From Proteromonas lacertae (lineage: Eukaryota): a stretch of DNA of 64,000 bases. Below are positions 1 through 25,404 of the stretch, one piece after another (the stretch's first letter is position 1; the number at the start of each line of letters is the position of its first letter). The notes under the pieces are model-generated. The model had not been told where the DNA came from and did no database searches. It saw only the letters and a program-made list of their open reading frames with translations. Location of the stretch: NCBI GenBank assembly GCA_002245135.1, contig NGBS01000606.1, positions 1-64,000 on the forward strand, given 5' to 3'. The translations under genes and the position numbers were made by a program.

Positions 1-2588
1 TAATATATTCAGCAGTTAAAACATTATAACTTTTAGATGTTTCATCTATTCTATCATAATAATCACCTGTTATTACAAGATTAAACAACTATTCACATTA
101 TATTATAATGTATAGTATATATATATCATATATACTTGTTCTTTTGATAATTCATAACATGTTACTTCAATTGTCAATTCTACTCTATCACCCTTTATAA
201 AGTCTGGAGGAATTGTTATTACTTCAACGTTATTGTAACGATCTGGATACACTAAACCATTTGGATATATTATTGTGTCGTTTATTTCCACTGTTAAATC
301 CAAGTCATTCATACAAAGCTTCTTGAAGTCTTCTTCACTGGTGGATCATTCCACACTAATGTCACTTTGAACTTTTGCTTTGGATTATAATATACAGTTT
401 TAGTGTATTTATCTCTTTTAGTATAGAATCTATTATTATCTTTTATCAATTCTAATCGAAAGTGAGGATTATCTGCAAAATACAAAACCTTATCTAAAGA
501 AGCAATTCCAAATCCTTGTTTATGATTTGGCCATTCTTTGAATGTAACTTTTGCTCCTTGTTTTGTATAATATCCTTTTGCATTTTCACCACTATGAATT
601 AACATTGCTTTTACTAATGAAGAGGTTGGAGTAAGCCCATTTCCTGATACTTTTGTTCCTGTTGGATAATATCCTTCTTGTAAATACTGTTCAATAATTG
701 CAACAGCAGAAGCACCTAATGGAGTAGCCATTGATGTACCAGATTTAGTACTACACCACAACTATTATAATCAACTGGATTATTTTGTGAAGCAGCAGAA
801 GACCAAATTTCATCTCCCATGAATGAAATATCTGGTTTTATTCTATCATCATTAGTAGGTCCTTGAGATGAAAAATATGTTATATAATATTTTGTACTAC
901 ATTATAAATGATAAACATAAATATACTCTCTTGTGGTTGCATAGTATTGATGACTTGCTCCAACAGTAATTATATTTTTTCCTTGTGCTTGAGAGTCTAT
1001 AGATATACCTCTAGGAAGAAATTAGATTAAAAAAAATACGATAATTCACCTTCATTACCTGCAGCAAACAAAATGACCATATGCGGATTATTATATGCAT
1101 ATTCATCTATACTATATGTTTCCATGCTATATTTGTAATATTCAGCTCCCCAACTGTTACTAGATATAATACTGCCATAATCCTTCATTCTATCAAAGTA
1201 TTTTGATAAATCTTCTGGAACTGTCAATCCATCATCTTTCACTTGTATATCAATAAATGCAATTTTACTATCTTTAGCTAAAGAGTAAATAATGTAATAA
1301 AAGAAAATATGATTGAATTAATATATTGAAAAATGATATATTCGCTTCACTATCTTCATTTTGTAATGCACCAGCAGCTATTCCACAAACATGTGTTCCA
1401 TGTCCGTCTCTACAAATATAAACAATATATATATGAATTTATTATTATACTTTATATCACTTTTATCACCCATGTACTTTCATATCCTTGTACTTTTCTA
1501 TGATTTGACAGTTTAGTGTTATATTGTATTGATGCTGTTGTATCTCTAAATAAACAGTGAGACGTATCTAAACCAGTATCACCTATTCCAATTACTATAT
1601 TCTTTCCAGTTAACTTATTTCCTAAATACTTTACACCAGTACTAAAGCTCTCTGTATATCTGAAATGATTATAGGCTTGATTAGCTATACAAAACAATAA
1701 AATAAAAAATATATTAATAGATACATTTCACTCCACATATTTTACTATTATTGTGTGAAGATCTTAGTGTATTATGTTTTATCTTCAATTTTGGATCTAT
1801 TGATTCAATCATTGGTTCTAATAGTATGTAACTTAATACTTCATCTTCATTTCATCGTTTATTGATAACCTAATATAAGTATCAGAAGTATAATATTCAG
1901 AGAGAGATGAGTGCAATATTCGATAGTTAACAGAGTTAAGATTTCTCTTTAATAATTTATTTTCTCTTACCTTTTTGAAAGTATTTCTGTTGTTTTTCAT
2001 CAATTTTAGTATGTTTTCATAATTAATAACTGATTTGTCTTTTTCACTTTTGACCTTTTTTGTCTTATAAAGCTTGGATGATTGTAGCTCATCAACATAG
2101 AAATCTACTCCATTCATTATCATATTCTTTTCTTCCTTGTTAGAATTATCTCGAAATTTAATAACATATTCATCAGATATTTTATCTAATGTCAATAGCT
2201 TTATAAGTAAGCTCAACTCTTCATACTCGAAACTACAACTTGGATGATTTGTAAAATAGTCTTTTATCTTATTTTCATATGTATAAAAAATCATAGCACT
2301 TCCTTTATCACCTTTTATAAATTCTCTTCTTCCCAGTTCCTTTTCAAGATCTTCATTCAACACACAATCTGTTTTTACAACATACTCTTTGGGATCACTT
2401 GTAATATTGTAAAATGATTCATAATACTATATCAGAATAAATAAATAGTAAATGATTGAATGTAATACTCTATAAAATAATTTAGTATTCTCCTCATTTA
2501 TATTGATATAATCAATGTAGAATGGTTTTGCATCTGAAAAATGCACTAAAGCGATAGAGCAAATGAATAACAGAAATAGTATTTTCAT
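1..2588 (-). CDS. Subtilisin-like S8 serine protease (TagC/KP-43-like), paralog 1; 3' end runs off the window
   Basis: Signal peptide MKILFLLFICSIALVHFS from ATG 2588. Catalytic motifs GIGDTGLD, DGHGTHVCG, AAGNEG and SGTSMATP lie across exons, followed by IKPD and LVWNDPP. Three 1-bp deletions in homopolymers (~1478, ~746, ~315) break the frame. Confidence 0.88.
1285..1339 (-). other. Putative minor (U12-type) AT-AC intron, 55 nt
   Basis: ATATCATTTTT...TTATTACATTATTTAC. Removal joins EDSEAN|SLAKDSKI, matching the intron-free paralog 3 (YNSLAKNSRI). Confidence 0.7.
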
Positions 2589-2652
2589 AATTTTTTCATA
2601 CACCTAAAACGATCAAAAGATGTTAATTAAATAAATATGAATTTTGATATAT

Positions 2653-5553
2653 TTAAGGAGTAGGAACATTTATTTCTTCTGGAGATATTCTGTGATGATG
2701 TATTTCTTTCATTCTACAACGACATATACAATAACAACAAGCTAGTATCAAAAATAGAACAGCTACGCAAGCAGCTGATATTAATACTATATAAACAGGC
2801 TTCATTGTAGTTGATTCTGTAATACCACCATTCTCACTATCTGACTTCTTTGATGTTGGATTTACAATATATTGAGGGTTTTGACAAACAAGATCTACCT
2901 TCTTACCTGTAAAAGGATCAACAGAAATAATAGGTAATGGAAGAAGATTATATTCTTTAATTGGATCATTTTCATTATCATAGAATATACCAGTAATAAC
3001 AAGTGAATAATTCTGTGAAGAGGTTGAAATACTATCAGCACTAATGATTATTTCAGCAGCAAAATTTGATATAGTGTCATTACTATAATAGCATGGAGGA
3101 ATAGTAATAACTTGAACATTATTAGTATTATCTTCTTGTGATAGACTATTTGGATGGATTATTGTGTTATTCACTTTTACTTTTAAGTGTAAATGATTTA
3201 ATAAATAGGATGTTGCTCTATAATCAACTGGTGGATCATTCCATACTAAAGTAACTTTGAATTGCTGTGTAACTTAAAAAACATTAAGAAATACAATGAC
3301 ATTTATAAAAATATAAAAGAAAAGATATGTTAAAGTAATATTTGTATGAATGAATCTCATTTGAAGAAATACCTTCTTCTTCTAATAATAATAATCGAAA
3401 GTGAGGATTATCTGCAAAATATAAGATTCTATCTAAGGAAGCAATTCCAAACCCTTGACGATTGTTTGGCCATTTATCAAACAAATTCTTAGATTCTTGT
3501 CTTGAATAATATCCTTTTGCATTTTCACCACTATGAATTAACATTGCTTTTACTAATGAAGAGGTTGGAGTAAACCCATTTCCTGATACTTTTGTTCCTG
3601 TTGGATAATATCCTTCCTGTAAATACTGTTCAATAATTGCAACAGCAGAAGCACCTAATGGAGTAGCCATTGATGTACCAGAGAGTTGAAAGTAAGAGCA
3701 ATGCTCATAATTATCATTCTCTATTGCTTGTGATGAATATATACTTCTCCCCATTACAACTATATCAGGTTTGATTCGATTATCATTAGTTGGACCTAGT
3801 GAAGAGAAATATGAAATATAATATCTCGAACTATTCAGTATATACATAATAGTAATAATAGAATATATATACTCATCTGTTTCATCTTCATTAAAATCAG
3901 GTCTATTATTTGAACCAACAGAAATCCCATTTTTGAATTGAGCTTCTGAAGTTATTGTTGGATATCTAAATAATAATAACAATTATATTATACGGATAAT
4001 AACCATAGTTATTAGCAGCTATAAGTGCAACATGAGTAGGATTTGCATATAAGAATCTATCAAGATTATAAGATTCTATTGTATATTTATATTCATCAGT
4101 TCCCCAACTCATACTTGAAACAATACATCCATCATCCATTAATAATTTTAAATATTCTTCGCCAATGTCAATTGGTGTATATATATTTACACCACCTTCT
4201 CCTAAATCCCAAAATAATATTTTACTATCATATGCTAAAGATTAAAATAAATGTTAAAAATGAACTAAATAACAAACAATAACTATAGGAGGGAAAAATG
4301 ATATTTTTGAACTATCGTCAGTTATACTATATCCTGAAGCAATACCACAAACATGTGTACCATGTCCATTACTATATACAATACAATACAAATACATACT
4401 TTGTATCTGTACTATCAACATAAATGAAATACTCAACTACTTTCCTATGATTCATGTTTATATTATCATAAACAATATTATTGTTTTTATCATAAAACAT
4501 ACAATGATATATATCTAAGCCACTATCTCCAATTCCTAATAGTATATTTTTACCTGATAATTGGTGTTTCCAAGCTATTTCTTCACCTGTACTTAGACTT
4601 TGTAAATATTTTATATGACTAAAATCATCACTCTTTAATTGTCTACATGAACTTGTGTGATTATTGCATGAATATTCTTCTTGAATAATTGGAATAATTC
4701 TCTTTCTATGATTAATATAAACACTATCAATTTCATTTCGAGTGAGTAAATAACTTAAGATTTCATTCACTGATTCTGGCTCTATATACACTCTAAAACA
4801 AATTAAATAAATAAACAATAATACAGAATATGTTTCAATGAAGATGATTTTGGTTTTAAAATACGAAATGAATTGGATTTTAATCGTCTCTTTAATGATT
4901 GTTTATGTGATTTGTCTTTTATCTTTTTTCTTATACTCTTTGTGTTTTTCATAAGCTTAATTATCCTTTCATTGTCAATTACTTCGTCTAATACTTTTGT
5001 TTCCTTCATCTTTGTTTTATATGGTGATATTATGCTATTTACTTCATCCAAGTAATCTTCAACTTCATTCAATAGATGTATTAACTGATCTTCACTTTTG
5101 AGGTGGTTTTCTCTAAATTTCATTATATATTCATTATTTGTTGAATTTTTATTCTTAATAAAAATCAATTTCATAATTACACTCATTTCTTCATATTCTA
5201 GAGTGCAATCTTTATATTCAGAAAAACAATTCTTTATTTCACTTTCATTAGCATATATAATCATAGCAGTCTCATTAACACCTGATATAAACACACTTTT
5301 ACCAAACCATCCTTCAAAATCTACGCCTGAACTACAATTTGTCTTAATAACATATTCTTTTGGATCGTTTTCAAATCTTCTAAATGATTGGTAGTACTAT
5401 AAACAATAATAATTGTTGAATAAGAAAATGTGTAGATACCTTATTAAACAGTAATTTATCGTTATTTTCGAGGTTAAAATACTTTAAATAAAATGGTTCT
5501 ACACATTCACAACCTCTAAATACTATGAACAAAATAAACAAAAACTGACACAT
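2653..5553 (-). CDS. Subtilisin-like S8 serine protease, paralog 2, with C-terminal transmembrane helix and Cys cluster
   Basis: Motifs GIGDSGLD, NGHGTHVCG, SSLGPTNDNRIKPD and SGTSMATP; TM segment VYIVLISAACVAVLFLILACCYCIC; exons join in frame. Confidence 0.9.
3274..3328 (-). other. Putative minor AT-AA intron, 55 nt
   Basis: ATATCTTTT...TTCTTAATGTTTTTTAA. Removal gives YYFN|VTQQFKVTLVW, colinear with YYNPKQKFKVTLVW and YYNPKHMFKATLYW in the paralogs. Confidence 0.7.
4242..4304 (-). other. Putative minor AT-AA intron, 63 nt, at the same position as 1285-1339
   Basis: ATATCATTTTT...TTTTTAACATTTATTTTAA, containing in-frame stops. Removal gives DDSSK|SLAYDSKI. Confidence 0.65.
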
Positions 5554-5709
5554 TTTTCAAAAACTTTTCGTTTAAATAATCCCCAATTCTTTAAAACAGT
5601 TGTTAAATACACAAAATTCAAATAACAAATGTAAATAATACATATAAATATGTCATATAAAATTTAATCCTATCAAAAAAAACAGATTCTGATAGATTCA
5701 TTGATTAAT

Positions 5710-8547
5710 TCACTTCATTGTTGTTTTAAATCTAGCATTATTATCAGGTATTCTTTTAACAGATGGTTCAAAACAATTACCACCATCATCACTCTTCTCT
5801 CTCTCAGGAGTTGCTACTAATCTTCCTGTATTATGATTAGCAACAGTTGGTTTCTTTCTTCTCTTTCTGATGTTATAAGAACACATATATATGCATGTAA
5901 TAAATATCACTACTACTAATATACATCCAACAACAATGATTAGTATATACCCAAAAGCTAATTTTTCTGTAAATGAAATATATCCAGTTATTGGATCAGG
6001 AATAACAGGAGGAACAGGTAAAGGATCATAATAAACATCACGTTCATAATAACTATCGTAAAAATCACCTGTTAGGATTAAAACATATTCTTGCATTACT
6101 GAAAGATTTGAATATGTAACAACTACTTCTATTGATAATCTATCATTATTATATTCAATATAATTTGGTGGAATAATGATAACTTCAACATTATTTACAT
6201 TATCTAATGAGTTTCTACAATTTGCATTTAATAAAATTGTTCCATTAATGATTATTTGTATGTCCAAATCATTTAATAACAGAGATTTTGATTTTCTAGT
6301 AACTGGAGGATCATTCCAATACAGTGTTGCTTTAAACATATGTTTAGGATTATAATAATAATAAAATATTTGTGTTTTATTAGTTGAATGAATAATTTTT
6401 TCAAATATTTTTAATCTGAAGTGTTTATCATCAGCAAAATATAACACTCTATCCAAGGAAACTATCCCAAAACCTTGCTTACTGTTTGGCCAAGATGTAT
6501 ATTTATGTTCAGTATAATAATTCTCTTCAACATATCCATATGAATATTCAGCGCTATGAATTAACATAGCTTTTATTATAGCTGATGATGGTACAAATGA
6601 ATCTTCAGGATTCTTAGTACCACTTGGATAATATCCATCTAAGAAATATTCTTCAAGTATTGCTACAGCTGCTGCTGCTAAAGGTGTTGACATTGATGTT
6701 CCTGATTTGGTAGATTTATCACAATGTTGAGTAGTTGATAGTCTTTTAGATTTGGCAGAATATATTTCATCTCCCATTAGAATTATGTCTGGTTTGAATC
6801 TTCCATCAACAGTTGGACCTTCAGATGAGAACTGAGTTTCATAATACTTTGATCTATTTGTATATAAATAAATAATTATACTTCTCTTTTAATCCACTTA
6901 CTGAATTAGGTTGTAATGATGCTCCAACAATTATTGCATTCTTTGATTGGCTTTGACTTGAAATTGTTTTAGCACCTCTTTTTCCTTCATTTCCAGCTGC
7001 GTATATAACAACAAAAGTTGGATTATTATATCTATTGTAAAAAATATAATACTTCAATAATAACAATACATAAATCTATCAATTCTATATGTATCTTCAG
7101 AATAATAATATACATTAGCTCCCCAACTATTACTTGTTAATGAATCACCTTTACTCATCATCTTCTTAAAATAACTATTCTCAATATCACTTGGTGCAAC
7201 AATTATATCTCCATCTCTGCTTAAATCCCAGAAATCTATTCTACTATTTTTAGCTAAACTATTATAAGGAGCATCATTCATAGTAGAAGAACCAGCAGCA
7301 ATACCACAAACGTGTGTTCCATGTCCATTACTATAAACAAATATAATTAATTGACATACTTTAAATCTTCTATATCATTCTGTAATGTATTATAAGAAAT
7401 GACTTTTCTATGGTTATAATTTACTGAATTGTAATATATTCTCTCATAACTATCATAAAACATACAGTTTGTTACATCTAATCCAGTATCACCAATACCC
7501 ATCATTATATATTTACCTGTCAAGTTATGGTTTGATGCTATTCTTTTTCCTCCACTTAAACTTTCAGTATAAGCAAAATGATCATAATTAGCTGCTAATA
7601 CTATTTACAAATCATAATTAAACATATAGAATACCTCTACTTTCTCTTAAACTCCTTTTACAGTTTTTATTTTCTTTTATATCAAATAAAACATTCTTTA
7701 ATCTTGGAAATATATCAATCACTTCTTTTTCTAAACATAGATAACTAATTATTTCATTGATTGAAGTTGAATGGATGAATAACCTAAATATTTATATGAA
7801 ATATAGATATACGGCATATAATATTCATTATTATATGAATTACTAACTTCTTCTAATAACCTGAAAGAATTGCTTGATGAAATTAACAACCTTTTGTATT
7901 TCATTTTCTTTGCTTTTGATTTGATTGATTTTCTCATTTCCTTATTATGTTTCATTAATTGAAGGATTATCTCATGATCAATTACATTATTTGGCTGTGA
8001 CTGATCATTTATTTCTTTTATATCTTTTGATTCTACTGTTTTTAATTCATTTATATAAATATCCAGTTCATTCAATATTTGATTTATTTTGTCTTCTATT
8101 TTGATGTATTCATCTCTCATTTTCACTATATATTCATTACTCTGTTCTGATTCTTTTAAGAACAACAACTTCATCAGAATACTCATCTCTTCAAATTGTA
8201 ATGAACATTCTTTATTTTCTCTAAAATACTCTTCAATTTTCTCTTCACTAGAATATATTGTCATAACACTTTCTTTGCCCCCTGCCACAAATACTCTTTC
8301 TCCTAACTTTTCTTCAAAATCGATATTCGCACTACAGTTTGTTTTAATAATATATTCTTTTGGATCAGATATTACCTCTTTAAATGATTCATAATACTAT
8401 GGATTAAAGAAACAAACTAGAAATTTTACATACCTTTTGAAACAATTCTAGATCTTTCTCTTCTATGTCAAAATACTGCAAATAGAAAGGGTGAAGTTGT
8501 GTACATAAGGACACAGCGAAATAAGCCAGAAAAACAAACTGAAGCAT
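5710..8547 (-). CDS. Subtilisin-like S8 serine protease, paralog 3, type I membrane-anchored
   Basis: Signal peptide MLQFVFLAYFAVSLC; motifs GIGDTGLD, GHGTHVCG, YAAGNEG and SGTSMSTP; C-terminal TM helix. Confidence 0.9.
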
Positions 8548-8666
8548 ACTTGAAACGGATAAAAATACAAAAAAACAAAAAATGTAGCAAATGTGCAATC
8601 ATTGCATTTAATAAACACAACAATTTAATAATATAGGTTACCAATCAATTAATTGAAATATACTTC

Positions 8667-10147
8667 TTATATTAATTGTTTTTCTATATACTGGAATAAT
8701 TTCTCTTTCATTCTACGTTTATTGCATTTTAATGCACTATAATCCATAATCCATTTATACATTGTACCTATTTTAACATTTGATAAATCGAATTTCAACA
8801 GCTCATTAAGTGCTGGTTCAATCCTTGCATCATGAAATGGATAATATTCCATCTTAATTCTATTATTATTAGCTAAAGAGCATGCCATCCATTGAATCAA
8901 ACATTTCAATTCATGATTTCCATGATATACTCCACAACCCCAGTTACCAGTACTTAAAACTGTTTTATTTGTCTTTTTCTCATCAATTAAGAATGCAGTA
9001 TACGCTTTATTCAACTCTCTATCAATACAAGTCTTACTAAACTGATAAAGAGAATTATTTCCTTTGACTGTTCCATTATTCATGAAATGTAAAGCATCAA
9101 ATATAGTTATCTATATTAATAAAAAACAATTAATACATCATTTTGTATTACTCCATCTTTTACATCAGTAGTATCTTTAATAATTCCATTCAATACTGCC
9201 TTATTTCCATATCCCTCATATTTATTAAACGATTCACATCCTTGTACAAACACAGCTTCATTATCACTCATTTTCTCACACAATAGCACAGCCATTAATG
9301 ATTCTGGTGATCTCATTTCTATTAATTCTTCTTGTATTAATCCATAACCTAATACACCTCCACCTACTAAATTATTTGCAAATATTGAATGTATTGTATC
9401 ACTATTGTCTGTTAAACTACCTTCTGGTTTAATTGTAAAATCACAAAGAGTTTGAGTGACGTTTGACCAATCGATTGGGGCAGGTAATACATTACGAACT
9501 ATTCTTATATATTTACCTTCTGGATTATGTAATTCTTTTTCTTTCATACATTTGAAATATTGAAATAAACCAGCTATTTTTTGAGGAATTACTACTTTGT
9601 TAAAACCAAAATTTCTGCGATTTAAAATGTAACGGAATGTTGCACAATTCATAGGTGGATCTGGATATGAACCAATTAACAAATGAGACATTAGATAGGT
9701 TACATATTGACGATCTATAAGAATCTCTGAACTCTATACGAATATAATATATTAAACAACAATACAGATTGTGATTCAAGATAAGGCAATCTATTATCAT
9801 TGAATTCAATTAGTTTCTTTGAACATTCCAATATGTACTATTATTTTAAAAATTGTTTATCAAAAATATTATACGTTAAATACTCCATCATCATTTAGAT
9901 ATTCATTATAGTCTAAAACTCCACTACCATCTTTATTGAAAATTTGTGGTACAGCATTAGCAATTTGTTTTTGTTTGAATGCTAAGAACATATTACTGAT
10001 TTTTTCAACAGTATAAGGTGGTGTAGGAAGCTTTGATAAGAAATCTGACCAGTTTTTCTCTAATAAACAATATTTGTTTTCTTTCCATAACATATATGGT
10101 AAATTAATAAATTTTACTGCTTTTTTGCTAGAAGTAAACTTGAACAT
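8667..10147 (-). CDS. PARG: Poly(ADP-ribose) glycohydrolase
   Basis: Catalytic loop FANNLVGGGVLGYGLIQEE; motifs RELNKAYTAF and TGNWGCGVY; three GT-AG introns join the ORFs. Confidence 0.92.
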
Positions 10148-10243
10148 AGAGTTAACAATAATTCTATATTTTTGGGAAAACGAAATAATTTTCAGACACC
10201 CCGAATACAATTTTACATAAAAACGAATAAAATAAACAATTAA

Positions 10244-13200
10244 CTAAGTATTTAAAGGTTCTACTGGAGGTGTAACAGCAATAGGAAGTGGAGTACTACT
10301 TTCAGATTGAATTTCTTTCTTCTCTGAAGTTTTCATACTATCTGGTGTTTGAAAATCAAATTCATTTTTACTATTATTAGCTGCAGGTGTAGTAACATTA
10401 TGTGTCGAAGTACGATTAACAATTCGACTATTTCTATTAACTATACTATGTGTAGTTGCAGTATTACCATTAATATGAGTATGTGAAGTACGACTAACTG
10501 TTTTATGAGCTATACTACCATTACTAACACTGCTTCTATCTCCTTGCGTAGGATGAGAACCACATGTTCTTATCAAAACAGTTTTAGTAGTTCTTTGAGT
10601 TAATGTTGTATATCTTATTGCTTGGAAAGCTAAATTTGTACTTTCATTCTGTGTAAAGACAGAGTAACCACTACCTATTTGATTATTTTCATTCTTAGCT
10701 TGTTGTTCTTCTTTATAACCAACCATTTTCTCAACTACGGCATCTTGAAGTTCAGTATTCATTTGTTCAAAACCATTGAACCATCTTAACAAATCCTTTG
10801 CTTTAGTAGCATGAATACTACCTAAAAATGATTGTCCACAATTCTGTATTATCAATTGTAGAACTTCTTCATCTACTTTTTCAAATAATTGAGCATTTGG
10901 TTCTTCTTCTGCTGCTGTTTTTAATATTTTTTCTTTCAGTGAGTCACTAATATTCACTTGATATTTACCATCATCTTTAATATATTTATCAATCATTTTC
11001 TGTGTATAAACTTTTAATTTCTTTGGATCAGTATTTGGATTGTTGGCTATTTTGAAGAATTTTATTGAATCTAAGAAGTAATAAATGTTTTCCTCTAAAT
11101 GTAAATCTCTCATATGAAACATTAAGCAATATCTACTAATTGGATCAGCTAAAATCGCTGTATAAGTTGCATTAATTGATGTATAAGGTCCAATTACGAT
11201 TTTATTGGACATTCTGACATGAATAAATGTAGGAATACTAAGATAATATACTAATGATATAATAATGTAAATTATAACAATTGTCAATCCATCACCAAAT
11301 GAAATAGCATGTAATGCAAATAATAAGTCAATTATAATGAATAATAAATCACCTACTATAACAGCAATATTCATTATCAATAATTGCTTTTCTAGTTTAA
11401 TCCTTAATAATCTGAAACAATCAATGAGTGACACTAAATCAACCAAAATCTATAAGTAAATAATTAAAAAGCAAATATTTAGATAATCATACACTACAAG
11501 CTAATGCTAAAATCATATTCAAAACATCTGCTCCACAAGTTTCATAGTGAATTGGGATTCCTGCTCTCACATATTCATTCATATATTTGTTTTGGTATAA
11601 ACTTATTGATAGAACAGCTGTAATAATGAAGAAAACTCCAAATCTTTTGAAGTAAATACGATAATCTGCTTCTAACACCATATTCTTCTTTATTTCTTCT
11701 TCAGCTGTTTGATGACTGATACAATAATGTGATCTATTCATATTACAATATCAAATATTTTATACATACGATGCTATAAAAACATTAGCGAAGTAAAATA
11801 AATATAATCCAACCCAACAATTAATATCACCACTTGTTCCAGTTAAAATAAGAAAAGAAATTGTTATTAATACATAACCAAAAGCTCCTGAAAATATATA
11901 AGTTCTTTGTGTTGTAAGAGAAATAGCCAGATGTTTTTTTAAGAAAAATATAGAGAATAGTATTATTGATATAATGAAGGTAATACATGTAAATACCATT
12001 TGTATATAAAACAACCAAGAGGATGATATATTATCACAAGGAATATTTACATTTTCTGTTGGTATTTTTATACCTTTTGTACAAATATGTGGTTCTTTAT
12101 AAAACAATCTAACAGGCAAATCAGTGCTTTTACATTTCTTAAACTCCATATCAATATTAGATAATTTGCAATCATTCAATACAGCAACTGCATTAAATGA
12201 TACATCCTTATAACACTTTCCAGTAGTTGGTTGTGTATTTGTTATAGATATGAATGGCAAAGAACATTGAGTAATTGAATCATCATCACCATTTGATTTA
12301 CATTGAGTTAAATCGACAGTTATATTGAATGTATATGTTTCACCTTTAACTATTTCTCTATATATATCAATATTGGATGTATATATTGAAGCAGTACTTA
12401 ATTCTTTACGCAATTCAATTGTTAATGGCAATTCTCCATCGTTGTGAATTGATACACTTGATGTTGATGTTGTATCACCAGTATTATATCTGAATGTAAT
12501 TGTTGATTCATCTGATTTCCAGGATGCTAATTTTGTTAAATCAGAAATGGGAGTCATAAATACCATGTACAACGTTTTAAATACTTTTGGACTCCATGTT
12601 ACATAGTATTCAATTCCATTTATTGTCACTATAGAATGAGATAATATTAATAATTAGTTATACTTGTAATAATTCTCTCACTATACTCTCTGTGACTATT
12701 CAGTTCAGTTTCATTCATTTGCAACAGCTTATAAATGAATTTAAAATCTTCGGATTGATCTTGAAAATATCCTATATTATACAAACTAATATCATCACTT
12801 TCACTTTCACCTTCTTTCTTATGAAAGAATTGTTTCAGTGTATTATCATGTGCATATACAACATCTCCTGCATCAAGAATACATATAATATGACTATTCT
12901 TTGTAAAGTTGTATTTCTCACTAAATACATCAAAATAATCGATTATATTCAATTCGCTACTCATTGAACCAATTCTTTTACCTTTGTAATGCAATAAAGC
13001 ACAAAATGCTAAAACCCACATTTTGCCTCTAGGATCATTCTCACTTACGTATGGAGGAGATATGTATGGTTCTTGTGTTGGGTTCTGCTCTTCATTTCCT
13101 AGATAAGCCCAAAAGAATTCCTCATTATGCCAGATATCATCACTATAACCATAATCACATACTTTTGGAGCAGTATTTTTAGGATATATCATGTCGATAT

Positions 13201-13672
13201 ATGGAGAATCTCCTACTGTAATACCACCAGATGGACTATTCAACAAAAGATGAAGATATTCTAAAGCAGTATCACCTTTACTAAGAATATCAAGCATTTC
13301 TTGCTTTTCTGCATCATTCCAATTTGTTTTATTCGAACTTACAGGAGGAACATACATTATCATAAAATCACCAGCATCTTCTTCACTCATATTCATATGT
13401 CCATTATGCGTATCATCACAGTGAATAAAACTACTAGCGAGAAACCTGCTTCTAAATACCGGATAATCAGTTAAGACATGGGATTGAAAATCCACAGCAG
13501 CCATGTAATCAGCAAAATTCCCTGAAATATCATCATATGCAACTGTCGCTGTGTCTGAAACGCTTTGTTTGTCACAAACCAACCTATGTTACAAATATTC
13601 AGATTAACTATACAAAGACGAAGTGCTAATACCAGATAAAGTGATAATAAAAAGTAATATGCTGAATATCAT
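10244..13672 (-). CDS. Predicted receptor: signal peptide + dCache-like sensor + beta-rich/Cys-rich linker + ~7TM + RGS domain (~1090 aa)
   Basis: Five exons join in frame through four GT-AG introns. Cache-like motif PYISPPYVSENDPRGKMWVLAFCALLHYKGKRIGSMSSELNI; seven hydrophobic segments; RGS motifs EENIYYF and KYIKDDGKYQVNIS. Confidence 0.8.
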
Positions 13673-13800
13673 AAATTGTAATGATAGATTGAATAAATTA
13701 AAAAATAACAACCAACTCAAGCTAAATGTTTGAAAATCTTCATTTTCTTATCAAAATAAATGAACAATGTAAAAAGTAGATTAAGAAATTATTACTATTA

Positions 13801-15368
13801 TTAACATACAGGTGTTTTTAAAGGTCCATTAAACCATTTTGATGTAGCAGATCTAAAATTGATATTTTTATTATTTCTAGGATCACTATCATAAAATGCT
13901 TGATTGGCCATTGCATTCTCCTTTCTTCTCAACTCCTGTAACTCCTTATAATCAGTTACTCTCACTTTCTCACCATTTTCGTTCATTTTAAACGTCTGTT
14001 TCTTAGTATACTCATTTTCAGGAGTAATTAAAGTATCTTGCATCAAAATAGAACCTTTTCCCCAGAAACATCTATTCTGATTCCTTACTTCATTTATCTC
14101 ATCTGTGAAGTTTTTAGTATTCAATATTGCATCTCGTATTTCCTCATCAGTGTGGTGTTTAGTAATTTTCTTATAATTTCCTTTAAATTGTCTAATATAT
14201 GGATATCCAAATTCATGAATTGTATTCTATATCAAAAATTAATATATAAAAAAGAAATTATACATCAACCAATATTTCTCTTGCTTTTCTTTTATCTTCT
14301 TCATTAATTACACCAATTTTCTGTTTATCAAACGCTACAGATGCTTTCAAATCTTCTCTACCAACTATACCATCACCATCCAAATCATAAGTCTCATTAA
14401 AGTCTTGTAACTTATGCCTGACTCTATCATCGTGTAATTTACTATACTTATCATGTTTTTCTATATTATTAGTAAGTGGATCTAACATTACTGTTCTTAA
14501 TGGGTATTCTTGGGATGTTTTACTGATAGTCCATTTCTTCGTTGTACAGAGATCTTTACAAGTGTGTCGTAAATCATTGTTATCTTCAATATTCCAAGGT
14601 TTTACTACACTTACACTATTGCTTTCATTCATTGTTGTTTTATTATCTTTTTCTTCGCTAAAAGTATTATTATTATTATTATTATTATTTATATCATATT
14701 TTACTGGATATACTGGTTGGGAATGATAAGCCCAGCCATTCAATGAACCAGCTTTTCTTAAAGAAACATCTGGATCATATCTTTTAGCATATTCTTTTCT
14801 ACCTATATCTAATGTTTCATTGTAATAATCATTGGAGTGTTTTACATGTGTAGTGGTTAATTGTAATGATCCTCTTTTTACTGTCTTCATTTCTTTACTG
14901 GTTGTGATTTTGTCTGGATCTGGAGCATATACGTCGATTGTATAGTCACCAAAGGTTTCATGTTCTACAAATTGATTTCTATTTGATCTATAAGTAAGTG
15001 GTGTTCTTCTAGTTAATGTGGGAGTACCAACTTCACAACATGTCCCTCCTCCTGCTATTTGATCCAATGGTAATCTTCTATAATGAGGCTGTTCTCTACC
15101 TAATACTATTTTTTGTTTATATTGTTCTTTTTCTGACATAATTGGACTAACTTGTGATGAACTCCTATGTCGAGGTACTGAAGTATGTGATCGTTGAGAG
15201 GGAGGTGAACAAGGTGGTAATGATGAATGACTTCTCACGCTTCTACGAATAGAAATATATTCAATACGCTTGTGGTGTTGATCTAACAGATGATGCATTT
15301 GTTCTTCCTGTAATTGTTCTTTGCCTACCAGAACTAGCTGGTATAGAAGGCACACTCAATGGTTTCAT
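13801..15368 (-). CDS. Uncharacterised protein with an EF-hand-like motif
   Basis: ATG 15368; two GT-AG introns; EF-hand loop DLDGDGIVGRED. Confidence 0.6.
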
Positions 15369-15459
15369 TAAAAAGAATAAAAAAACGTCTATCTGAAACG
15401 CCTCTATTTCTTTTAACTAACAGAAAAAAGGAAAAGATAAACAAATATAAATATCTAAA

Positions 15460-16878
15460 CTAAATTTCTTCATTATTAGGAACAGATAAATATATAGGAG
15501 CAGCGAGTTCATCCGGACTTTCATCTTTTATCATTTCATAGTATTTAATCTCACCTGTTCTATTAATTAATATTAAATCATTTTCTATTTTCTTTACACA
15601 ACAGAGAGGAATATTTCCAACAACATATTCATGAAATGGTTTTAATTGTTGAGGTTTCTATTCGAATATATATAATCAAAATATAATATATACATCGTCA
15701 CTAAGAGAACAATCTAATACCCAAAAATTCATAAATGAATCATCACCTGAGGTTATAAATTCAATAATGCATTTATCATCATTATAGATAGTATGTATTG
15801 GTAAAATGGTATTAATCCATGAACTATGACCACCACCTTCAGCTAGTTTATTTCCCGTTTTGTAATCATAAATATAAAACAAATCATCTTGTCCAGAAAA
15901 TCCAATATAAGAATCATTGAATAGTTGTAAAGAATTTACTGACCCACAGTATGTTTCAAATATGTATTGTATTACTTTATGATTATTATCAATGATATAT
16001 ACTTTTCCATCCTTATTACCTACAATCAATGTGCTAGTATCACTTGTTATTTCAAACACTATATTATATATATATTTATATATTTATATATTTATATTTA
16101 TACTTGTAATATATTTGCAACCTTTTATTTTTATATAAGATATAGGATTTGTATTAGGTAGATGTTGATATGTAATGGCATTACTAAATAATAATAATAA
16201 TATAGATTAAATATTATTATACTCATTTACTTCTGGAAATTGAACAATTGCTTGTTTATTGCTTAATGATATATTATATCCATGTATTGAACCATCATTA
16301 TAACTAATAAATAGTGTTTTATTATTGTGAATTAAGTACGTTGGATATAATGGAGTGATTAAATTAAGATAGTTAATATGATATATTTCTTTTATATCAT
16401 TATGTATTTTATGAATAAATACTTCACCACATGATAGAATAGATGCTACATGAAATTCTATTAATAATTTTATATAGTAATTTATATATATACGACGCCT
16501 ATAAAAGAATGACACATGATTAATAATTGATGAACAGATATGATGTGTTATAGAAAAATTTGATTCACTAAATACATCTATATAACAACGAAGAGTGTTT
16601 TTAATTCCTTGAGTAAGTATTGGTGTTGTAGTTGCTAGAAATTATATAAGATTATAAATACAGTTAATTGTTGTTTTATGAATTCTAATACCAATCTCAT
16701 TAGGATAAATTAAAAATGTTGACACATTTTCATCTATCCCATCCTCAAGAGATTTTGTATTTATTTCTGTTAGTTGCTAGAGACAATTACATATCATATA
16801 TACATATGTATAGTATCCTAAAACAAAGCTGCCGTTGTTAAATCTCTTTTTACATGGACTTTGAAACGTATTATTCAT
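15460..16878 (-). CDS. WD40 protein, WDR20/DMWD/CreC-like
   Basis: GQDDLFYIYDYKTGNKLAEGGGHSSWI resembles the WDR20-family motif GEDDLV...GHKSWV; six GT-AG introns. Confidence 0.65.
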
Positions 16879-17127
16879 TTTTTAATAAACAACACTGCAA
16901 GATCCGATCAAACCGCATAATTCATTTTTTGATTTTCATTTTAATTATTATAATCACTTCAATTATCACTTTCACAACTATTACCATCTATATTTTACAC
17001 TAATTATGTAAAAAATATACAAAACTCTCATAAAATAATTCATTCATATTTTAAATAAACACCAAAACAATATATTCATACAAATTAAACAATAATAATC
17101 ATGTTTTAAAAACAAATTCAATCAAAT

Positions 17128-17580
17128 CTATTCTGAGGCTGCATTTACTGCTGCTTCCAGCTGTTCAGCCGCTTTCTTCTCTTCTATTTCTTGTTTTACC
17201 CTCATAGATAGTGATTTATTAATTCTCTTTTTATTAACTTGTCCCTTCTTCTCACCAGCTGATAAATCTATCATTTTACCACACTATTCAAATTAAAAAT
17301 AGTATTAATGAAAAATATAATATTTAACAACATCAACAAAACTAGTATATCTTTGGTATTATGCGTATTATTAAAAGTGAGTATAATATACCTTACAAAC
17401 ACAAACTATTGCCACTATAGCTCCTACAATAACTACTACTACCACTACTATGAGTATTATATATCCTACTGATAAACCATCCAATCTAGTTAAAGATTAC
17501 TCTGAAAAAAATAAATACTGTCTTGTGTGGTTATTAAGAGTCTCCAATAAACTTCTAGCAGATAACTTTAGGCTAGACAT
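17128..17580 (-). CDS. Small single-pass membrane protein (~100 aa), absent from the ORF track
   Basis: ATG 17580; TM segment YIILIVVVVVVIVGAIVAIVCVCK; two GT-AG introns; TAG at 17128. Confidence 0.6.
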
Positions 17581-17875
17581 TACAAAATAGTCCAAAAATC
17601 GAAAGAAACAAAAAATCAAACAGTTATTGTAATGTTGGTATATGCGCTTTATTATGATAGCTGTGTCAAAACAAATATGGTTGCTAGGATTGATAGAGCA
17701 TCAGATCAAGTTTTATGTGAAGAATAGATGTACATCACCAAAATCACGAATTTTGAGTTTTCTTCTGGTTAAAAACACAAAACTTAATTTAAAATTAGCC
17801 ATAAATATGATTTTAAAGTGTATTTACAGTTTATAAACATATGCTACCTTTGAAACACAATTAAATTACACACAC

Positions 17876-18226
17876 TTACTCTGGATCTGTATTATTCCTT
17901 TGATGGAAATTGTCTAATATGTTTGATATTTCCAATAATACAGGATCAGTTATCTCACATTCATCAGAAACTCTATCAATACAATAAAACGAATTAAATA
18001 TATACAACATAATATTTACTATGTCTTGTATATTATTCAACTTTTGTAAGTATATATTCCTTTCAGTTAAAAGAGATAAGTGGTAAGATTTCATTTCATA
18101 TTCTTTTTCTGATAATCTATTGTTAATTGATGAGAAACGAACTATTGCATTCCTTTGTGCTTCAGTAATTTCAGGATTGAGCAAATACTCATCTGCAAGC
18201 TTCCACAAGTTTGTTTCTTTTGACAT
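17876..18226 (-). CDS. Small protein with an EB1 C-terminal (EBH)-like motif
   Basis: LLTERNIYLQKLNNIQDI...DPVLLEISNIL resembles EB1 LEKERDFYFGKLRNIE...DPVLQRIVDIL; no CH domain. Confidence 0.5.
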   Translation of the reverse strand: MSKETNLWKLADEYLLNPEITEAQRNAIVRFSSINNRLSEKEYEMKSYHLSLLTERNIYLQKLNNIQDIVNIMLYIFNSFYCIDRVSDECEITDPVLLEISNILDNFHQRNNTDPE

Positions 18227-18412
18227 GTTTGTCACTATTATAAATTACAATATTATTAAATTAAATAATTATACATACAATGAGAAAATCGAATAAATAT
18301 ATTTTTGATCCGAAAACAGAATCACCGACTGACTACAAAAAATAACAAAGAATAACAGTTTTTATAATAATTTTAATCAATAATAAATCAATTAAGATAA
18401 TATAATTATGAT

Positions 18413-19666
18413 TTATAGTTTTGGATTCACACTCAACACAATCTTTCCAATATGTTCATTCTTCTCCATAACTTTATGAGCTTCAACAACATCTTCAAGA
18501 GGGAACTATATAATTACAATTAATTATAAATTATTATACTGTCTTGAAGATAATTGGCTTTACTTTTCTTTGTTCAAGTAATGGCCAAACATTCTTATAT
18601 AATTGCTGTCCAATTTCATGTTTTACTTCAATTGAACGACTTCTCAATGTAGATCCAGTGATTGTCAGTCTCTTTAACATCAATTTAGTCAATGAAACTT
18701 GAGCCTATAATTATATATATAAATATATACTTTAGGTCCATGTTGTAAAGCAATAATCACCATTCTACCATCTTCATTCATTGATTTAATATTTCTCTGA
18801 ACATAATCACCACATATAATATCTAAAATCACATCAACTCCTTTCTTATTTGTCTTTTCAGCAATCACATCTTCAAATTTTGTATCACTTCTATAATCAA
18901 TTGCATAATCAGCTCCAAGTCCAAGACAAGCTTTACACTTCTCAGGACCATCGGCTGTAGTGAATACTTTACATTTAAATGCTTTTGCTAATTGTATGGC
19001 TGTTGTACCAATACCACTTGTTCCACCATGAACTAAGAATGATTCACCTGGTTTTAATTGACATCTCATAAATACATTGGAATATACAGTGAAATAAGTT
19101 TCACAGATTGCTGCAGCTTCGATCATTGAGAAGGATTTTGGGACTGGCATTAACTATAATAATAAAACAACTATAATTTATACAAGTTTATCATCTGCAA
19201 CAGCATATTCTGCATAACCACCTCCTTCTAATAAAGTACACACTTTATCACCTACTTTAACATTTTTTACATTCTTTCCTAATGCAACAACTACACCTGA
19301 TGCTTCTAAACCAGGTATATCAGTTGCTCCTTTTGGTGGAGGATACATTCCACTTCTCTATGATTTATTTAAATAATTAACTATACTTGCATAATATCTG
19401 GTCGATTTATACTTGAAGCTGCTACTTGAATTAACACTTGATTCTCTTTTGGTTGTGGCACTGGTCTTTTTCCTACAACCATTACCTCTGGGCCACCATA
19501 TTTAGGAATCTCAATACATTTCATTGTACTTGGAATTGATGCGAAATATCGAGAAAACAAAGCTATAAAAACATCATTATTTGCTATACTTTTACGACAT
19601 AATGCACTTGTACTTTTTAAAATAGAATTACCTAGATTATTAAAATATATCAGCCATACAGAACAT
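18413..19666 (-). CDS. NAD(P)H quinone oxidoreductase, PIG3/zeta-crystallin family, with a putative mitochondrial presequence
   Basis: Motifs YGGPE, INRPD, GATDIPGLEASG and VHGGTSGIGT; N-terminus MFCNSILKSTSALCRKTLFSRYF. Confidence 0.88.
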
Positions 19667-19752
19667 AAAAGAACAAAAAAGAAAAAAGTAGATATTTACC
19701 CAAAAATTATTTACGAACACCCATAATTTAAAATTCAATTTTTATACTTTGA

Positions 19753-20520
19753 ATGGAAGGCGGGTATGTTGTTGGTATTGTGTATTGGTTAAATGCTTAT
19801 AGATACTTCTAATGATGAAGCTTTAGCGAGAGAATTAGCTAAATCTTACGGAACTGGTATTTTGCAGTATTTATGATATGATTATAGATGGATTTTCTAT
19901 GGAATCAATATGTATAACCAATTATATAATAATAATAGTATGTCCTATCTGTGGAAAGGAATTGAATAAATATGATCCATCTCAAAGAAATTTACATGTA
20001 AGTGAATGTTCAGATAAAGCACCTGTTTTACCAGTATATATTACAAGGTATTTTCGATAGTGTGATGCTCCTAAGAGAAGAAAACTGAATTCTTCTTCTT
20101 ATACTACCATAACTAGAAATGCATATTCTCATCTAGTAGAACTATTGAATAGATGTAAAGATGTAGAAAAGCTAAAAGAAAATTATGAGTATATTATGAA
20201 TTATTCGTTGTAGTTGTGTTGAAGCTGAAAAAACAAAAGAAACAATTGAAATTGTGATTAATAAATTAATTGAAGAACAAAATAATTTGCACGAGCTAAT
20301 AGAAGAACATAATAAACCTGTTGCTACAGTCACTGACACACAGAACATAAAAGATATTCAAAATGTATATTTTTTAGTATTTTATGTGGTATAGATGATT
20401 GATACAATAGGAAACGATGATAAAGATACTATTTTTACTGCTACACAACCATTTCCAAAGAGTAAGTTTGAAAATCAAGGTGATAATTTACCTACATACA
20501 TTAAACCAAGTGATTTATAA
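19753..20520 (+). CDS. Small protein with a UIM/MIU-like helix and a UBZ-type zinc finger
   Basis: SNDEALARELAKSY and CPICGKELNKYDPSQRNLHVSEC; several tiny introns; TAA at 20518-20520. Confidence 0.55.
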
Positions 20521-20609
20521 TTTTAATGTCATTTATTTATACTTTCTATTCTATTGATTAAAACAATAATATATCATATTAAATAAAAATATTGTAATTT
20601 TAACTAAAT

Positions 20610-22781
20610 TTACGATAATAATTCCTCTCTCTGTTTTTGTAACATCAATTCAGTTTGTTGTACTTTATACTGAGTCTCAGTCAAAGCATCTGTCAATTCT
20701 TTAATAGTTTTATCTTTTGCTGCAATTGTATCTCTAATCTTCACTTGTAATTCACTCAATTGTAAATCATAGTCATTATGGACTTTATTGATTTCTAATG
20801 TATGTTGATGATTCAAAGCATCTATTTCACTTTGATGACTATCTATTTTTAACTCCAATTCATGATTTTTCTATATGAATAAGAATTATCATTAATATAT
20901 ATACAATTTCAAGTTGTCTTATTTGTTTCAATAATGGTTCTTTTGATTCATTACATTTATAATTGATTTCACTTTCATGCTGTCTTATCTTCGCTTCTAA
21001 TGACTGAATTGTTGATAATCTTTCTCTTAATTTATCATTTGCATCTTTCAAGTTATTTTCTATAGCTTTTACATTCTCTTCATTTGAATTAATCACTCCC
21101 TCTTGAATGGATATTTTCTTTTTTAATGAATCTATTTCAGTTTGTTTACTTTGTAATTCCATTTGAAAACTAACTTTCATATTTCTAATCTTATTTTCAT
21201 ATTCATCAGCTGTAGTTGAAACTTTGTTATTGGTTTCTTCAGCTATTTTGTTCAAAATACTATCAATTTGTTTATCTCTTTGTTCTGTTAATTCTTTTCT
21301 CATTTGTGTTTCTTTTATTCTATAATTTTCTTCATATTGATTCTTTAAACTTTGTTCTATTTTTCTTTTTTCTAAGTCTAATTTTTGATTCACTATTTCA
21401 CACTCTTCATTTAATTTCTTTTGTAATTCTAATTTCTCTTTATTATAGTTCTGTTGATATTCCATTATCAATTGATTCTTATTCTCTAATTTTCTTTCAT
21501 ATTCTTCACGGATACTAGCTTCGAATCTTCTTCTTTCCTCCATTTCTAGTTTCTTTGATTTGGTTAACTCTTCTTGTAGTTTTACTCTTAAATCAGATAT
21601 TCTTTGTTCATAATCGTCTGTTAATGATTTTAATCTTTCTATTAAATAATTATAATAGATATATACGATCTTGTATTTTTCTATCATTTAATACATCATT
21701 TTGATGTTCATTTTCTACTTGAATTCTCATTTCAGCTAATTTTCTATTCATATCACTTTGAAATGTATTTTTCATCTCATCTATTGTATTTTCATATTTC
21801 ATCGCCATATCCTTCATTTTATTCTGCTGTTGTTCAATTATCCTCTGTAATTCAGGAGCCATTTTCTATTAAGAAAAAATAGATATATATATGTTTATAC
21901 GCTCATCATATCTTTCTTCAATGCTTCTGTCTTTTCTTCTTCCCATTTCTTTCTCTTCTCTTTCTCTTCTTTTGCCCATTTCTCTTTTGCCCTCTTAAAT
22001 TCATCCTGCAAATATTTCTTTTGACTTTCAAACGTATTTTGTTTTCTTCCTTCACTACTTTTTATTTGATTTACCAATTTGTCAATTTGTTCAGTCAAAT
22101 CTTTTTTATCATTTATTAGTTGTTCTAACATTGTTCTTTTATCATCTAATGTTTTTTCGTATGTTTTTTTCATTACTCTCATATCAGAATCATGATCTTT
22201 CTTCATTGATTGAATCATTGATTCATATCTAATTTTTTCTCTTTTCATTTTTTCTTGTAGTAATTCTATTGTTTTTGATTTGTCTTCTAATTCCATTGAC
22301 ATTGATTGAAGTTTTGCTTTTACTCCATCATAAAGAGATGCCGCTGTTGTTGTTGGATTCTGAGTATTTGAGGATTGGGGAATATTTGGAGATGGTGAAG
22401 GAGATAAATTCACTTGTATTGGTCTTTTATGATTTAAAGAATGATGAGTGTAATCTGATGATGGTTGAACAGGTGATATTCGAGAGTCTTGTGAATGCTG
22501 AGACAATTTGTGAGATAATGGCGCTGGTGATATTGTAGACATAGAATTTTCATTTGAATTCTGTCTCTGCTGTGGTTTTGAATGATAAGAATATAAAATC
22601 TATTATTATTGGAACAAATTATACATCATCTGAATAAGAAGGTAAAGGCGGTGGAGGTGGTATTGTCACTGGTACATTTTTTGCTTCATCAAGAAAACTC
22701 ATAAAATCATTGATCTTAGACTTTGTTCTTCTACTTCTATCTATGAATATAGCTGTTCTATATTATACCTGCATCATCCAT
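20610..22781 (-). CDS. CEP131: Centrosomal coiled-coil protein CEP131/AZI1-like
   Basis: LEQLINDKKDLTEQ...KKWEEEKTEALKK...MAPELQRII and the C-terminal coiled coil follow the CEP131 pattern; exons join in frame. Confidence 0.72.
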
Positions 22782-22994
22782 TCTTATAATATTCAATAGA
22801 ATTCAAACAAATGACTATTTTAAAAACAAGGTTATTGAAAAATGAACGAAAAAGTGTTTGTCTTTTAGGTTTGATCAAAATAGATTATAATTTTTCTTTC
22901 ATTTTATGAATAATTGAAATCATCAGTGTTTAGGTATTTAATAATTGTTTGTTGAAACGTAAAATAGAAATACCATAGATTTCTTTGTAAAACC

Positions 22995-25404
22995 ATGCTT
23001 CAAGTTGATATAACTAGATTCAAGAGATACAAATACCATTTCACTATATTATTCACAGCTGGAATAGTTAGTATAGTTAATTATATTTTTGTAGTCACAA
23101 TTTATACTTATAAGTCTTTCTTTGATTCACTCACTAGTAAACTTATGCAATTACCGTTTATAATGCTTTGTGTTGTTATTACATTTTATCAAATTGTAAG
23201 AAGAAAAGAACTAGAAATGTATGTATTATTTCTTTATTTGTTGATATAGAGGAATTAATTACTTTATTTTAGGAGATTTTGTTTTGTATACGCATGAAAG
23301 TGAAGATGATAAGGATGAAGTTGATGATTATATAAAAGAATGTTTTCTTGTTCAATTTCCTCAGTTCAATAAACAGCAACTCAATAGAGCTTTTGCTATA
23401 TTTATTAGATATCTTTTTCATTTTTTATATATAAAAATATTTACAGATGTTTCTTTAATTTCATGTTTTTACATCTTTAGAATTCTATGTTACTACAACA
23501 GATGATGTTAATGATTTGGATTTCGCTTATCAATTCGACAATCGAAATGATAAAGATGAATTATTACCAATATTAACAGCATATGAGTTCTATTATGAAC
23601 TAGAGAGAAGATATGCATTATATTCATTCTTTTATTATCTATCCAATCAAAAGTTCTTAAATGTAATGAGAACTATTCCGTTATGTATTACATCATTTGT
23701 ATATATATTTATTTATGTATTATATATGTTCTTATAGTTATCTTATCACTTTTATGTTGCAAATTTCTGTATATTTTTATTGTGTTTATTTAACCATTTT
23801 TTTGATTCATCAAACTGTAGATTTATAACAAAACCTATTACATATTCACTATGGATTAATTATTTAATTGATATTGATTTATATGATATAAATCAGGATA
23901 TTGATTTAACTTATTATAGTTTTATGTCGCTTTATAAGTATTTATTTATACTTTCAGTTGGGGTTGAACTTCCAGTATAATAACATTTTTAATTATATTT
24001 GTATAGATAAATGTCTATATTTTCCTAAATATTACATATTATTTTGTTTCAGTGTTTTTAGCGTTTTGCTGTATTGAATTAGTAAATTGTTGTAGTATTA
24101 TATAGTGAAATTTATATTATGTGAATAGTATATAAATATATATTTCCATTTGTGTTGGAATTTTATAATATGAAAGTCAAAGAAAAGAATGATATTTCTA
24201 TAGATGATTTAGAAAATGATATTGATAATGAAGAAAACGATAATCTAAATAATAATTGTAATCATATTGAAGAAAATAGTATAATAGTTTCTAAAGAAGA
24301 TGGATATAATGAAGAAGAGAATGATAAAGAAGAAAAGGAAATGGATAATGATGAGGTAGAAGAAGAAGAAGATCTAAATAATGAAGATGATGATATTGAT
24401 AATGAAGAAGTAATAGAATATGAAATTCAAGGTAAATCTGAAGAAGAAAAAGAGAATGAAGATATTGATGATGATGAATATGAAGAGATGGAGGAGGAAG
24501 AAGGAGAAGAAGATAATCAGGAAGAAGTTGAAGAACAACAACAACAGGTAGTAGAAGATGGAGAGAATGAAGAGGAAGAAAGTCAAGAAGATATTCCAGA
24601 TGAATTAATATTGATTAATCAGAATTTATCATCATTCTTTTTACCAGTAAATATAATCAACGATAATTCAGTTGGTGGTGTTATAATAGTAATCATATCA
24701 TTTTTTATTATATGATGAAATATAGTCAACTTAATTAGTTTATATTGCATCTCTATGTTTTGGATTAATACCTCTTCAGAATGTTCTATTAGTCAAAATT
24801 CCACATGAATTACAGTTAATATTGATGATTAGTTCATTGAATATTTTTATATAGTATAATACTAATGATATTATATATTCAACAAATAGTTTATTTTGTG
24901 TATTTAAATATGTACCAATTGTATTGTGGATAATTCAGTTTATAGTTTCATTTATAATTCATTTAGTTTTATATCTCATATTTAACTATGATTTCATTAG
25001 TTCAGATCACTTTTTATTTGATGTAGTATTTATTTCCACAATTCTACATTGGAAATACTCATTTTTATTTAAGAATGTTCCAGTATAGATCTTATTATAT
25101 ATATATATAATATAGGAGGTAATTCATATGGTTATATCAATTAGTTTAATATCATATTTGTATAATAATTTAAATCAGTTTCAACTGTTTAATGAGATTC
25201 TTACCAAATACAACCATTCCTCCTTATTCTTTTCAAGTATATGTAATTTTTTATTATATAATAGCTCCTTATTCATATGGCTTTCAGTTTTTATCTTCAT
25301 TTAGTGAATTCTATATGTACTTTTTATTGCATGTTGATATTGGAAGATTTGATAGTGTTTTGAAGAATGAAATTTGGTATGTTATTGGTAGAGGAATTGT
25401 ATAA
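22995..25404 (+). CDS. Uncharacterised multi-pass membrane protein with a large acidic (D/E) loop
   Basis: Hydrophobic exons are joined by GT-AG introns and two AT-initiated introns; acidic tract at 24200-24600; start uncertain. Confidence 0.6.
23409..23472 (+). other. Putative minor AT-AC intron, 64 nt
   Basis: ATATCTTTTT...TTCTTTAATTTCATGTTTTTAC. Removal joins AIFIR|SLEFYVTTTDDVNDLDFAYQ in frame with ORF 23516. Confidence 0.75.
24695..24743 (+). other. Putative minor intron with ATATCATTTT donor; 3' end is AA at 24734 or AT at 24743
   Basis: In-frame stops follow the donor. Either end restores the TM helix GGVIIVI|(LVY)IASLCFGLIP, and the nearby GTAATC donor gives no in-frame product. Confidence 0.55.

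Follow-up and report, generated by a model that had tools for sequence, protein, structure and literature searches.

Five reading-frame interruptions in a 64-kb window of one contig (the window is the whole stretch analyzed, 64,000 nucleotides [nt] of Proteromonas lacertae contig NGBS01000606.1) share the donor ATATC(A/T)TTT and are likely U12-type introns removed by the minor spliceosome. What is new is the A or T at donor position +6; short, AT-started minor introns with loose 3' ends have been described before, for Blastocystis ST1. The evidence base consisted of the window sequence, homologs, and published papers. On these data, the interruptions at sites 1 to 3 are firmly assigned as minor-type introns, that at site 4 is likely to be one, and that at site 5 is assigned tentatively.

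Splice signals of the AT-started interruptions

The window has a GC content of 27% and densely packed genes. A self-trained gene model, run over 31 hand-set gene regions, predicted 112 GT-AG introns; after removal of nine with a start other than GTA, a length of at least 70 nt, or a GC-rich sequence, the clean major set numbered 103. Nearly all of these started with GTAT (100/103) and ended with TAG (99/103), their median length was 33 nt (range, 24 to 58 nt), and 53 of the 103 were in phase 0.

All five frame breaks that a first-pass annotation had described were found in place, each segment beginning with ATATC[AT]TTT. Three lie on the minus strand in subtilase genes, namely, site 1 (1285 to 1339; AT-AC, 55 nt, donor ATATCATTT) in paralog A, within the loop that follows its catalytic His, and site 2 (3274 to 3328; AT-AA, 55 nt, donor ATATCTTTT) and site 3 (4242 to 4304; AT-AA, 63 nt, donor ATATCATTT) in paralog B. 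Two lie on the plus strand, site 4 (23409 to 23472; AT-AC, 64 nt, donor ATATCTTTT) in a gene modeled at ~22995 to 24082 and site 5 (24695 to 24743; donor ATATCATTT) in a predicted membrane-protein gene modeled at 24170 to 25404, with a 3' end at AT (24743, 49 nt, preferred) or AA (24734, 40 nt). Site 4 is in phase 2 and the other four are in phase 0. The segments were longer than the major introns (P = 1e-4), and the size contrast claimed earlier stands at 49 (or 40) to 64 nt, with the major median corrected from ~30 to 33 nt.

All five donors read RTATC over +1 to +5 and have T at both +7 and +8. C at +5 occurred in two of the 103 major introns, and its combination with TT at +7/+8 in none. 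At +6 the bases are A, T, A, T, and A for sites 1 to 5, never C. Among the rows listed in the S11 Data of PMC5608401, 339 introns start with ATATC, all in the ST1 sheet, with C at +6 in 336, T in 3, and A in none; non-C at four of four independent positions in the window versus 3/339 in ST1 gives P = 6e-8. This difference supports the separate minor-type class with a +6-drifted donor that had been proposed.

An element of the form YTTAAY ends 8 to 13 nt before the 3' end at four of the five sites, in agreement with the first-pass description: CTTAAT at site 2 (3283 to 3288, minus strand; 9 nt), TTTAAC at site 3 (4253 to 4258, minus strand; 11 nt), TTTAAT at site 4 (23454 to 23459, plus strand; 13 nt), and CTTAAT at site 5 (24730 to 24735, plus strand; 8 nt before the AT end). 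It was found in 7 of 103 GT-AG introns, with a span of 7 to 14 nt counted (P = 3e-4). The full CCTTAAC branch was absent from all five.

The motif ATATC[AT]TTT by itself was not enriched, with 17 matches on both strands against ~14 ± 3.5 in Markov simulations. A motif-blind model with free boundaries called six non-GT-AG introns, the same six at either penalty, and five of them were at the five sites; the sixth (53777 to 53814) lacks ATATC and lies inside a poorly modeled gene. The motif stood within 25 nt of the 5' edge in five of the six calls and in 2 of the 103 GT-AG introns (binomial P ~1e-7). When restricted to GT-AG, the model was forced at the five sites to the donors GTGAAG, GTTATT, GTTTTT, and GTGTTA and to a 100-nt intron deleting a conserved stretch. 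The claim that GTAT-AG splicing cannot repair the breaks does not hold as worded, in-frame GT-AG alternatives being present at every site; what holds is that homology rejects the options starting with GTAT at site 2 (four, of 22, 40, 49, and 100 nt) and site 3 (one, of 93 nt).

Candidates and matches outside this donor were also recorded. GT-AG introns of the U12 type were sought and rejected, the three sense matches to GTATCNTT in gene bodies (12203, 33071, and 41772) falling within modeled exons. The canonical minor donor ATATCCTT has no sense and nine antisense matches in gene bodies, four of the nine from the duplicated block of subtilase paralogs A and B, with no control set; its sense absence may come from codon usage, or cryptic donors may be avoided.

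Homology at the subtilase sites and composition at sites 4 and 5

Three tandem subtilase paralogs lie on the minus strand: A (Pfam Peptidase_S8; 1 to 2588, extending beyond the window), B (2653 to 5478, start uncertain), and C (5710 to 8547, start uncertain). In paralog C, neither minor position is interrupted by an intron, and this gene served as an internal control. At site 1, removal of 1339-1285 scored best of 2,088 in-frame removals against C, tied with its own slides only, and the top GT-AG option ranked 805 of 2,088. At site 2, removal of 3328-3274 ranked first of 867 against three intronless homologs, with the top GT-AG option at rank 169. At site 3, 4304-4242 was the top ATATC option, at rank 15 of 1,123, and gave a product that falls one residue short of A and C; the higher-scoring removals retain one extra residue and carry no splice signals, and the top GT-AG option ranked 233. 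The residues S-L-A, retained only with the called 3' ends of sites 1 and 3, align to G-M-A of the solved subtilases 9ues and 1wmd. The two sites interrupt A and B at an equivalent codon, and their introns are identical over all of the first 12 bases, compared to 4, 5, 6, and 9 of 12 in four homologous GT-AG pairs. On this homology the segments at sites 1 to 3 are non-coding, and the donor comparison indicates that the donor is under constraint and distinct from the major GTAT donor. A near-identical block around the catalytic Ser was also seen in A (~560 to 750) and B (3500 to 3690) on the minus strand, the remainder being diverged, and may stem from gene conversion or mis-assembly.

A phase-0 donor ATATCNTTY translates as I-S-F when a gene caller reads on past the exon end. 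Four proteins were returned for the exon preceding site 2. The two close homologs (57% and 53%) end with I-S-F and I-S-F-F exactly at the site 2 codon, and all 15 members of two clusters (P0134 and P0135) end with I-S-F plus 0 to 2 residues and then a stop. These 15 open reading frames (ORFs) come from other sequencing runs, and the clusters, 52% identical to each other, represent two independent lineages. The two distant matches (36 to 37%) have no I-S-F end, and cluster P0121/P0132 reads through site 2 with no intron. I-S-F would arise by chance from intron-like bases at ~0.001, and read-through of the 53 phase-0 major introns gave it in none. Minor introns are present in some subtilase paralogs and absent from others. 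Site 2 is common to genes ~52 to 57% identical and is therefore not very recent. A tree of nine subtilase rows yielded no well-supported branch and so does not separate gain of site 2 from its loss, and a metagenome scan with P0134 returned a single distant locus at 30%.

Sites 4 and 5 were called by the motif-blind model. The site 4 intron had the top composition score of six options, ~10 log units over the best GT-AG alternative, which needs a GTTTTT donor. One 76-residue exon of its gene had no match among 1.84 billion representatives. At site 5, the composition scores were -303.7 (AT end) and -304.8 (AA end) versus -307.8 for the top-scoring GT-AG alternative, whose donor would have to be GTGTTA. 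One exon of this gene, searched in the Atlas, drew scores of 0.80 or less only, and eight of eight pieces of the site 4 and site 5 genes had no match in Pfam. Site 5 is the weakest of the five.

Competing explanations and the size of the class

If the introns are of the U12 type, U11 and then U6atac would read the donor, and U12 would read the YTTAAY branch element, placing the branch A ~10 to 15 nt from the end. The choice of 3' end depends on distance from the branch point, and this distance would set the AC, AA, and possibly AT ends. In described systems, a GG in U11 and in U6atac pairs with the CC at donor positions +5/+6, and the branch site is paired by U12 (PMC4980772). In the present lineage the second C of that CC would no longer be needed. 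Both A and T occur at +6, so absent or relaxed pairing there is likelier than re-pairing; G wobbles with U and does not pair with A, and no single small nuclear RNA (snRNA) change fits both. The likeliest arrangement would therefore be one in which the donor is recognized mainly by C+5 and the three Ts at +7 to +9, and pairing at +6 is relaxed.

Several observations weigh against the minor-spliceosome reading. In mammalian cells, the CC5/6GG change blocks U12 splicing, and CC is needed (PMC4980772). Five introns are a small sample for a claim about +6, and the ST1 list could itself favor ATATCC donors. Four of nine sense-strand motif matches in gene bodies are not donors, two lying inside ordinary GT-AG introns (55381 and 56733) and two within ORFs (27646 and 47727). 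Site 1 lacks a clear YTTAAY element; a looser branch pattern is found at all five sites but also in 34 of 103 major introns, so that site 1 has no convincing branch element. Paralog A may be a pseudogene or poorly polished. The homolog evidence at site 2 consists of amino acids only, and that at sites 4 and 5 entirely of composition and frame. A search of the window with Rfam identified no spliceosomal RNA, giving nothing at gathering scores and two chance-level matches at E up to 1, which, being confined to the window, is not informative on the genome. As to kinship with Blastocystis, that name was absent among the 120 PP2C matches listed.

Frame in itself is weak evidence, since the window sequence carries at least eight single-base frame breaks. 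They were seen in otherwise intact genes at 338, 748, 1475, and 1850 on the minus strand (the four in paralog A), at 30512 and 32998 on the plus strand, and at 60349 and 63250 on the minus strand, with a further one near 53780 to 53830 on the plus strand; assembly sequence errors, or pseudogene decay in paralog A, are their likely cause. Nearby GT-AG introns combined with such errors or decay could mimic AT-started introns, a reading that also draws on the in-frame GT-AG options at all five sites and on the lack of overall motif enrichment. At site 5 it gains from an out-of-frame AG at 24738, with which a small indel error would permit an AT-AG or GT-AG intron. It does not explain the position and donor that sites 1 and 3 have in common, the I-S-F ends in independent assemblies, or the gap-free homology. 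Such misreading is highly improbable for the set as a whole and plausible for sites 4 and 5 only.

Alternatively, the introns could be real with these ends and be removed by the major spliceosome as an AT-started subclass, the minor spliceosome being lost or irrelevant. The major donor GTAT is one base from ATAT, C is missing at +6, and some AT-AC introns can be spliced by the major spliceosome (PMC11347168). However, all five share C+5 followed by TTT from +7 to +9, features rare in major introns; they exceed that class in length, with a branch-like element at a set distance in four; and sites 1, 3, and 4 skip a TTTAG a few bases downstream, although TAG ends 99 of 103 major introns. Removal by the major spliceosome is accordingly considered improbable, and the minor-spliceosome reading is preferred.

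Whether this minor class is also expanded genome-wide is a separate matter. The first-pass annotation had suggested an expanded minor-spliceosome system on the premise that minor introns are normally well under 1%, a premise that is wrong for Blastocystis ST1, where 346 of 35,412 introns (about 1%) are of the U12 type and where all four minor snRNAs and seven minor-spliceosome proteins are present (Gentekaki 2017, PMC5608401). A class of at least 3% of introns, built by recent gains through an AT-rich relaxed donor, is a possible but doubtful addition to the minor-spliceosome reading. For it speak the share of 5/110 (4.5%; P = 0.005 versus a 1% rate), the presence of minor introns in some subtilase paralogs and their absence from others, and phase 0 at four of five sites, a phase tied to possible recent gain in Blastocystis (PMC10639083). 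The exact interval for 5/110 is, however, 1.5 to 10.3%, and the five of ~108 introns count as four when taken by position (P = 0.024) and as three when taken by gene family (P = 0.10), three of the introns lying in two tandem paralogs and two representing one homologous position. All five are in the first 25 kb, with none in the 40 kb past position 24,743, and the window was selected for looking rich. The shared site 2 also argues against a very recent origin.

Local enrichment of this kind is seen in ST1 as well. The first 3,839 rows of its list hold 43 ATATC introns (1.1%), and 5.8% of 108-row stretches contain at least five and 10% at least four; the richest 108 rows hold 7, at an overall level of ~1%. 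With stretches of ST1 equally rich and with clustering among paralogs, the expanded system is not supported. The local share of 5/~108 most likely reflects paralog-family clustering, against a genome-wide background of one to a few percent. A combined scenario, in which the minor spliceosome dropped C at +6 (ATATCWTTT), U11 and U6atac changed so as to match or relax, and the AT-rich, easily created donor let minor introns rise to 3 to 5% of the total, several-fold the level in ST1, is unlikely as a whole.

Neighboring genes and relation to known minor introns

Named homologs of the PP2C protein of the window were from stramenopiles (42 to 49% identity), with one further protein cluster at 92 to 94%. 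The lineage is probably a Blastocystis-like stramenopile. The Blastocystis downstream element TGTTTGTT occurred four times in the 64 kb, and its density in human subtypes is 1 per ~3 kb (PMC5608401). TGTTT, often TGTTTA, stood within 90 nt past the modeled gene end in 16 of 31 models, with no control set, and could be an AT-shifted version of TGTTTGTT. The tiny introns and low GC content agree with low-GC members of Blastocystis (PMC12129017). Low-GC Blastocystis with longer introns is described there, and the word "minor" is absent from the excerpts of that paper and its preprint.

Among the other genes, an SF3b10 (SF3B5) gene with three GT-AG introns was found at 57225 to 57571 on the minus strand. 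SF3b10 serves both spliceosomes, and the gene is therefore no evidence on the minor spliceosome. Tandem protein kinase genes on the plus strand (41086 to 43409 and ~43630 to 44937) have near-identical kinase domains, an identical 32-nt intron, and differing C-terminal parts. On the minus strand, a DUF1295 gene without introns (26993 to 28006) adjoins a near-intronless methyltransferase gene (25601 to 26639) in an otherwise intron-rich genome; transfer of the pair from bacteria is possible, and a genome scan with the DUF1295 gene returned a single distant locus at 27%, uninformative on gene transfer. The same strand carries a predicted membrane protein in which a large N-terminal region is combined with an RGS domain at the C terminus (10244 to 13745) and an intronless ORF (50530 to 51072) that by eye resembles a transposase N-terminal helix-turn-helix, with no Pfam match. 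An exact look-up of window ORFs found none of 10.

In comparison to other systems, the window most resembles Blastocystis ST1 in its intron richness and tiny major introns, and the minor introns of both start with ATATC, are short yet longer than the major class (ST1 median, 39 nt versus a mode of 30), are often in phase 0, and are locally clustered. Larue and Roy (2023) list 253 Blastocystis minor introns, 77% AT-AC and 49% phase 0, with a median of 39 nt, and name AT-AA and AT-AT, AT-AA foremost, as the commonest non-canonical minor ends (PMC10639083); for B. hominis, 0.29% minor and 2.6% minor-like introns are given (PMC11347168). The first 42 ATATCC rows of ST1 end in AC (21), AG (18), AT (2), and AA (1) (PMC5608401), and so the relaxed 3' ends noted in the first pass, although present in the window as AC, AA, and possibly AT, are not new. 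In contrast to ST1, +6 is A in three and T in two of the five donors (ST1, C in 336/339, with three T and no A), TTT is invariant at +7 to +9, positions that vary in the ST1 rows seen, the branch element lies 8 to 13 nt from the end compared to ~3 to 7 nt in those rows, lengths are 49 to 64 nt versus a median of 39, AA/AT ends make up 3/5 versus 3/42 (P = 0.01), and GC content is 27% versus 55%.

Minor introns of Physarum polycephalum share the +6 T donor variant, AT-AG, AT-AA, and AT-AT ends, support from paralogs, and a drifted splice signal (bioRxiv 2020.10.12.336362). There, however, the branch site has drifted with a matching U12 snRNA change, 20,899 of ~175,000 introns are minor and mostly GT-AG, and +6 A is not among the variants described in the excerpts of that preprint. 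Animal and plant U12-type introns likewise have the ATATC start, T at +7/+8, and a branch element near the 3' end (in degenerate form at four of the five sites of the window), but they keep CC at +5/+6, paired with GG in U11 and U6atac (PMC4980772), and disfavor phase 0 (~22%; PMC10639083). No paper on an ATATCA-type minor donor was found in the published literature covered, which left subscription journals and preprint supplements outside.

The CC at +5/+6, by which U11/U6atac pairing was proven in mammalian cells, is conserved to 99% in ST1. A lineage with A or T at +6 would be a natural test of co-evolution between minor snRNAs and donors, which in the excerpts available is reported for the branch site only, in Physarum (bioRxiv 2020.10.12.336362). 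Gene finders built on GT-AG would miss or mis-annotate such introns, as did the GT-AG-only model at all five sites, and classifiers built on human donors may under-score them, so that minor introns of AT-rich protists could be undercounted. ORFs called in prokaryote style on eukaryotic contigs mark phase-0 minor donors where they end with I-S-F and a stop and offer a possible screen of protein databases for this class.

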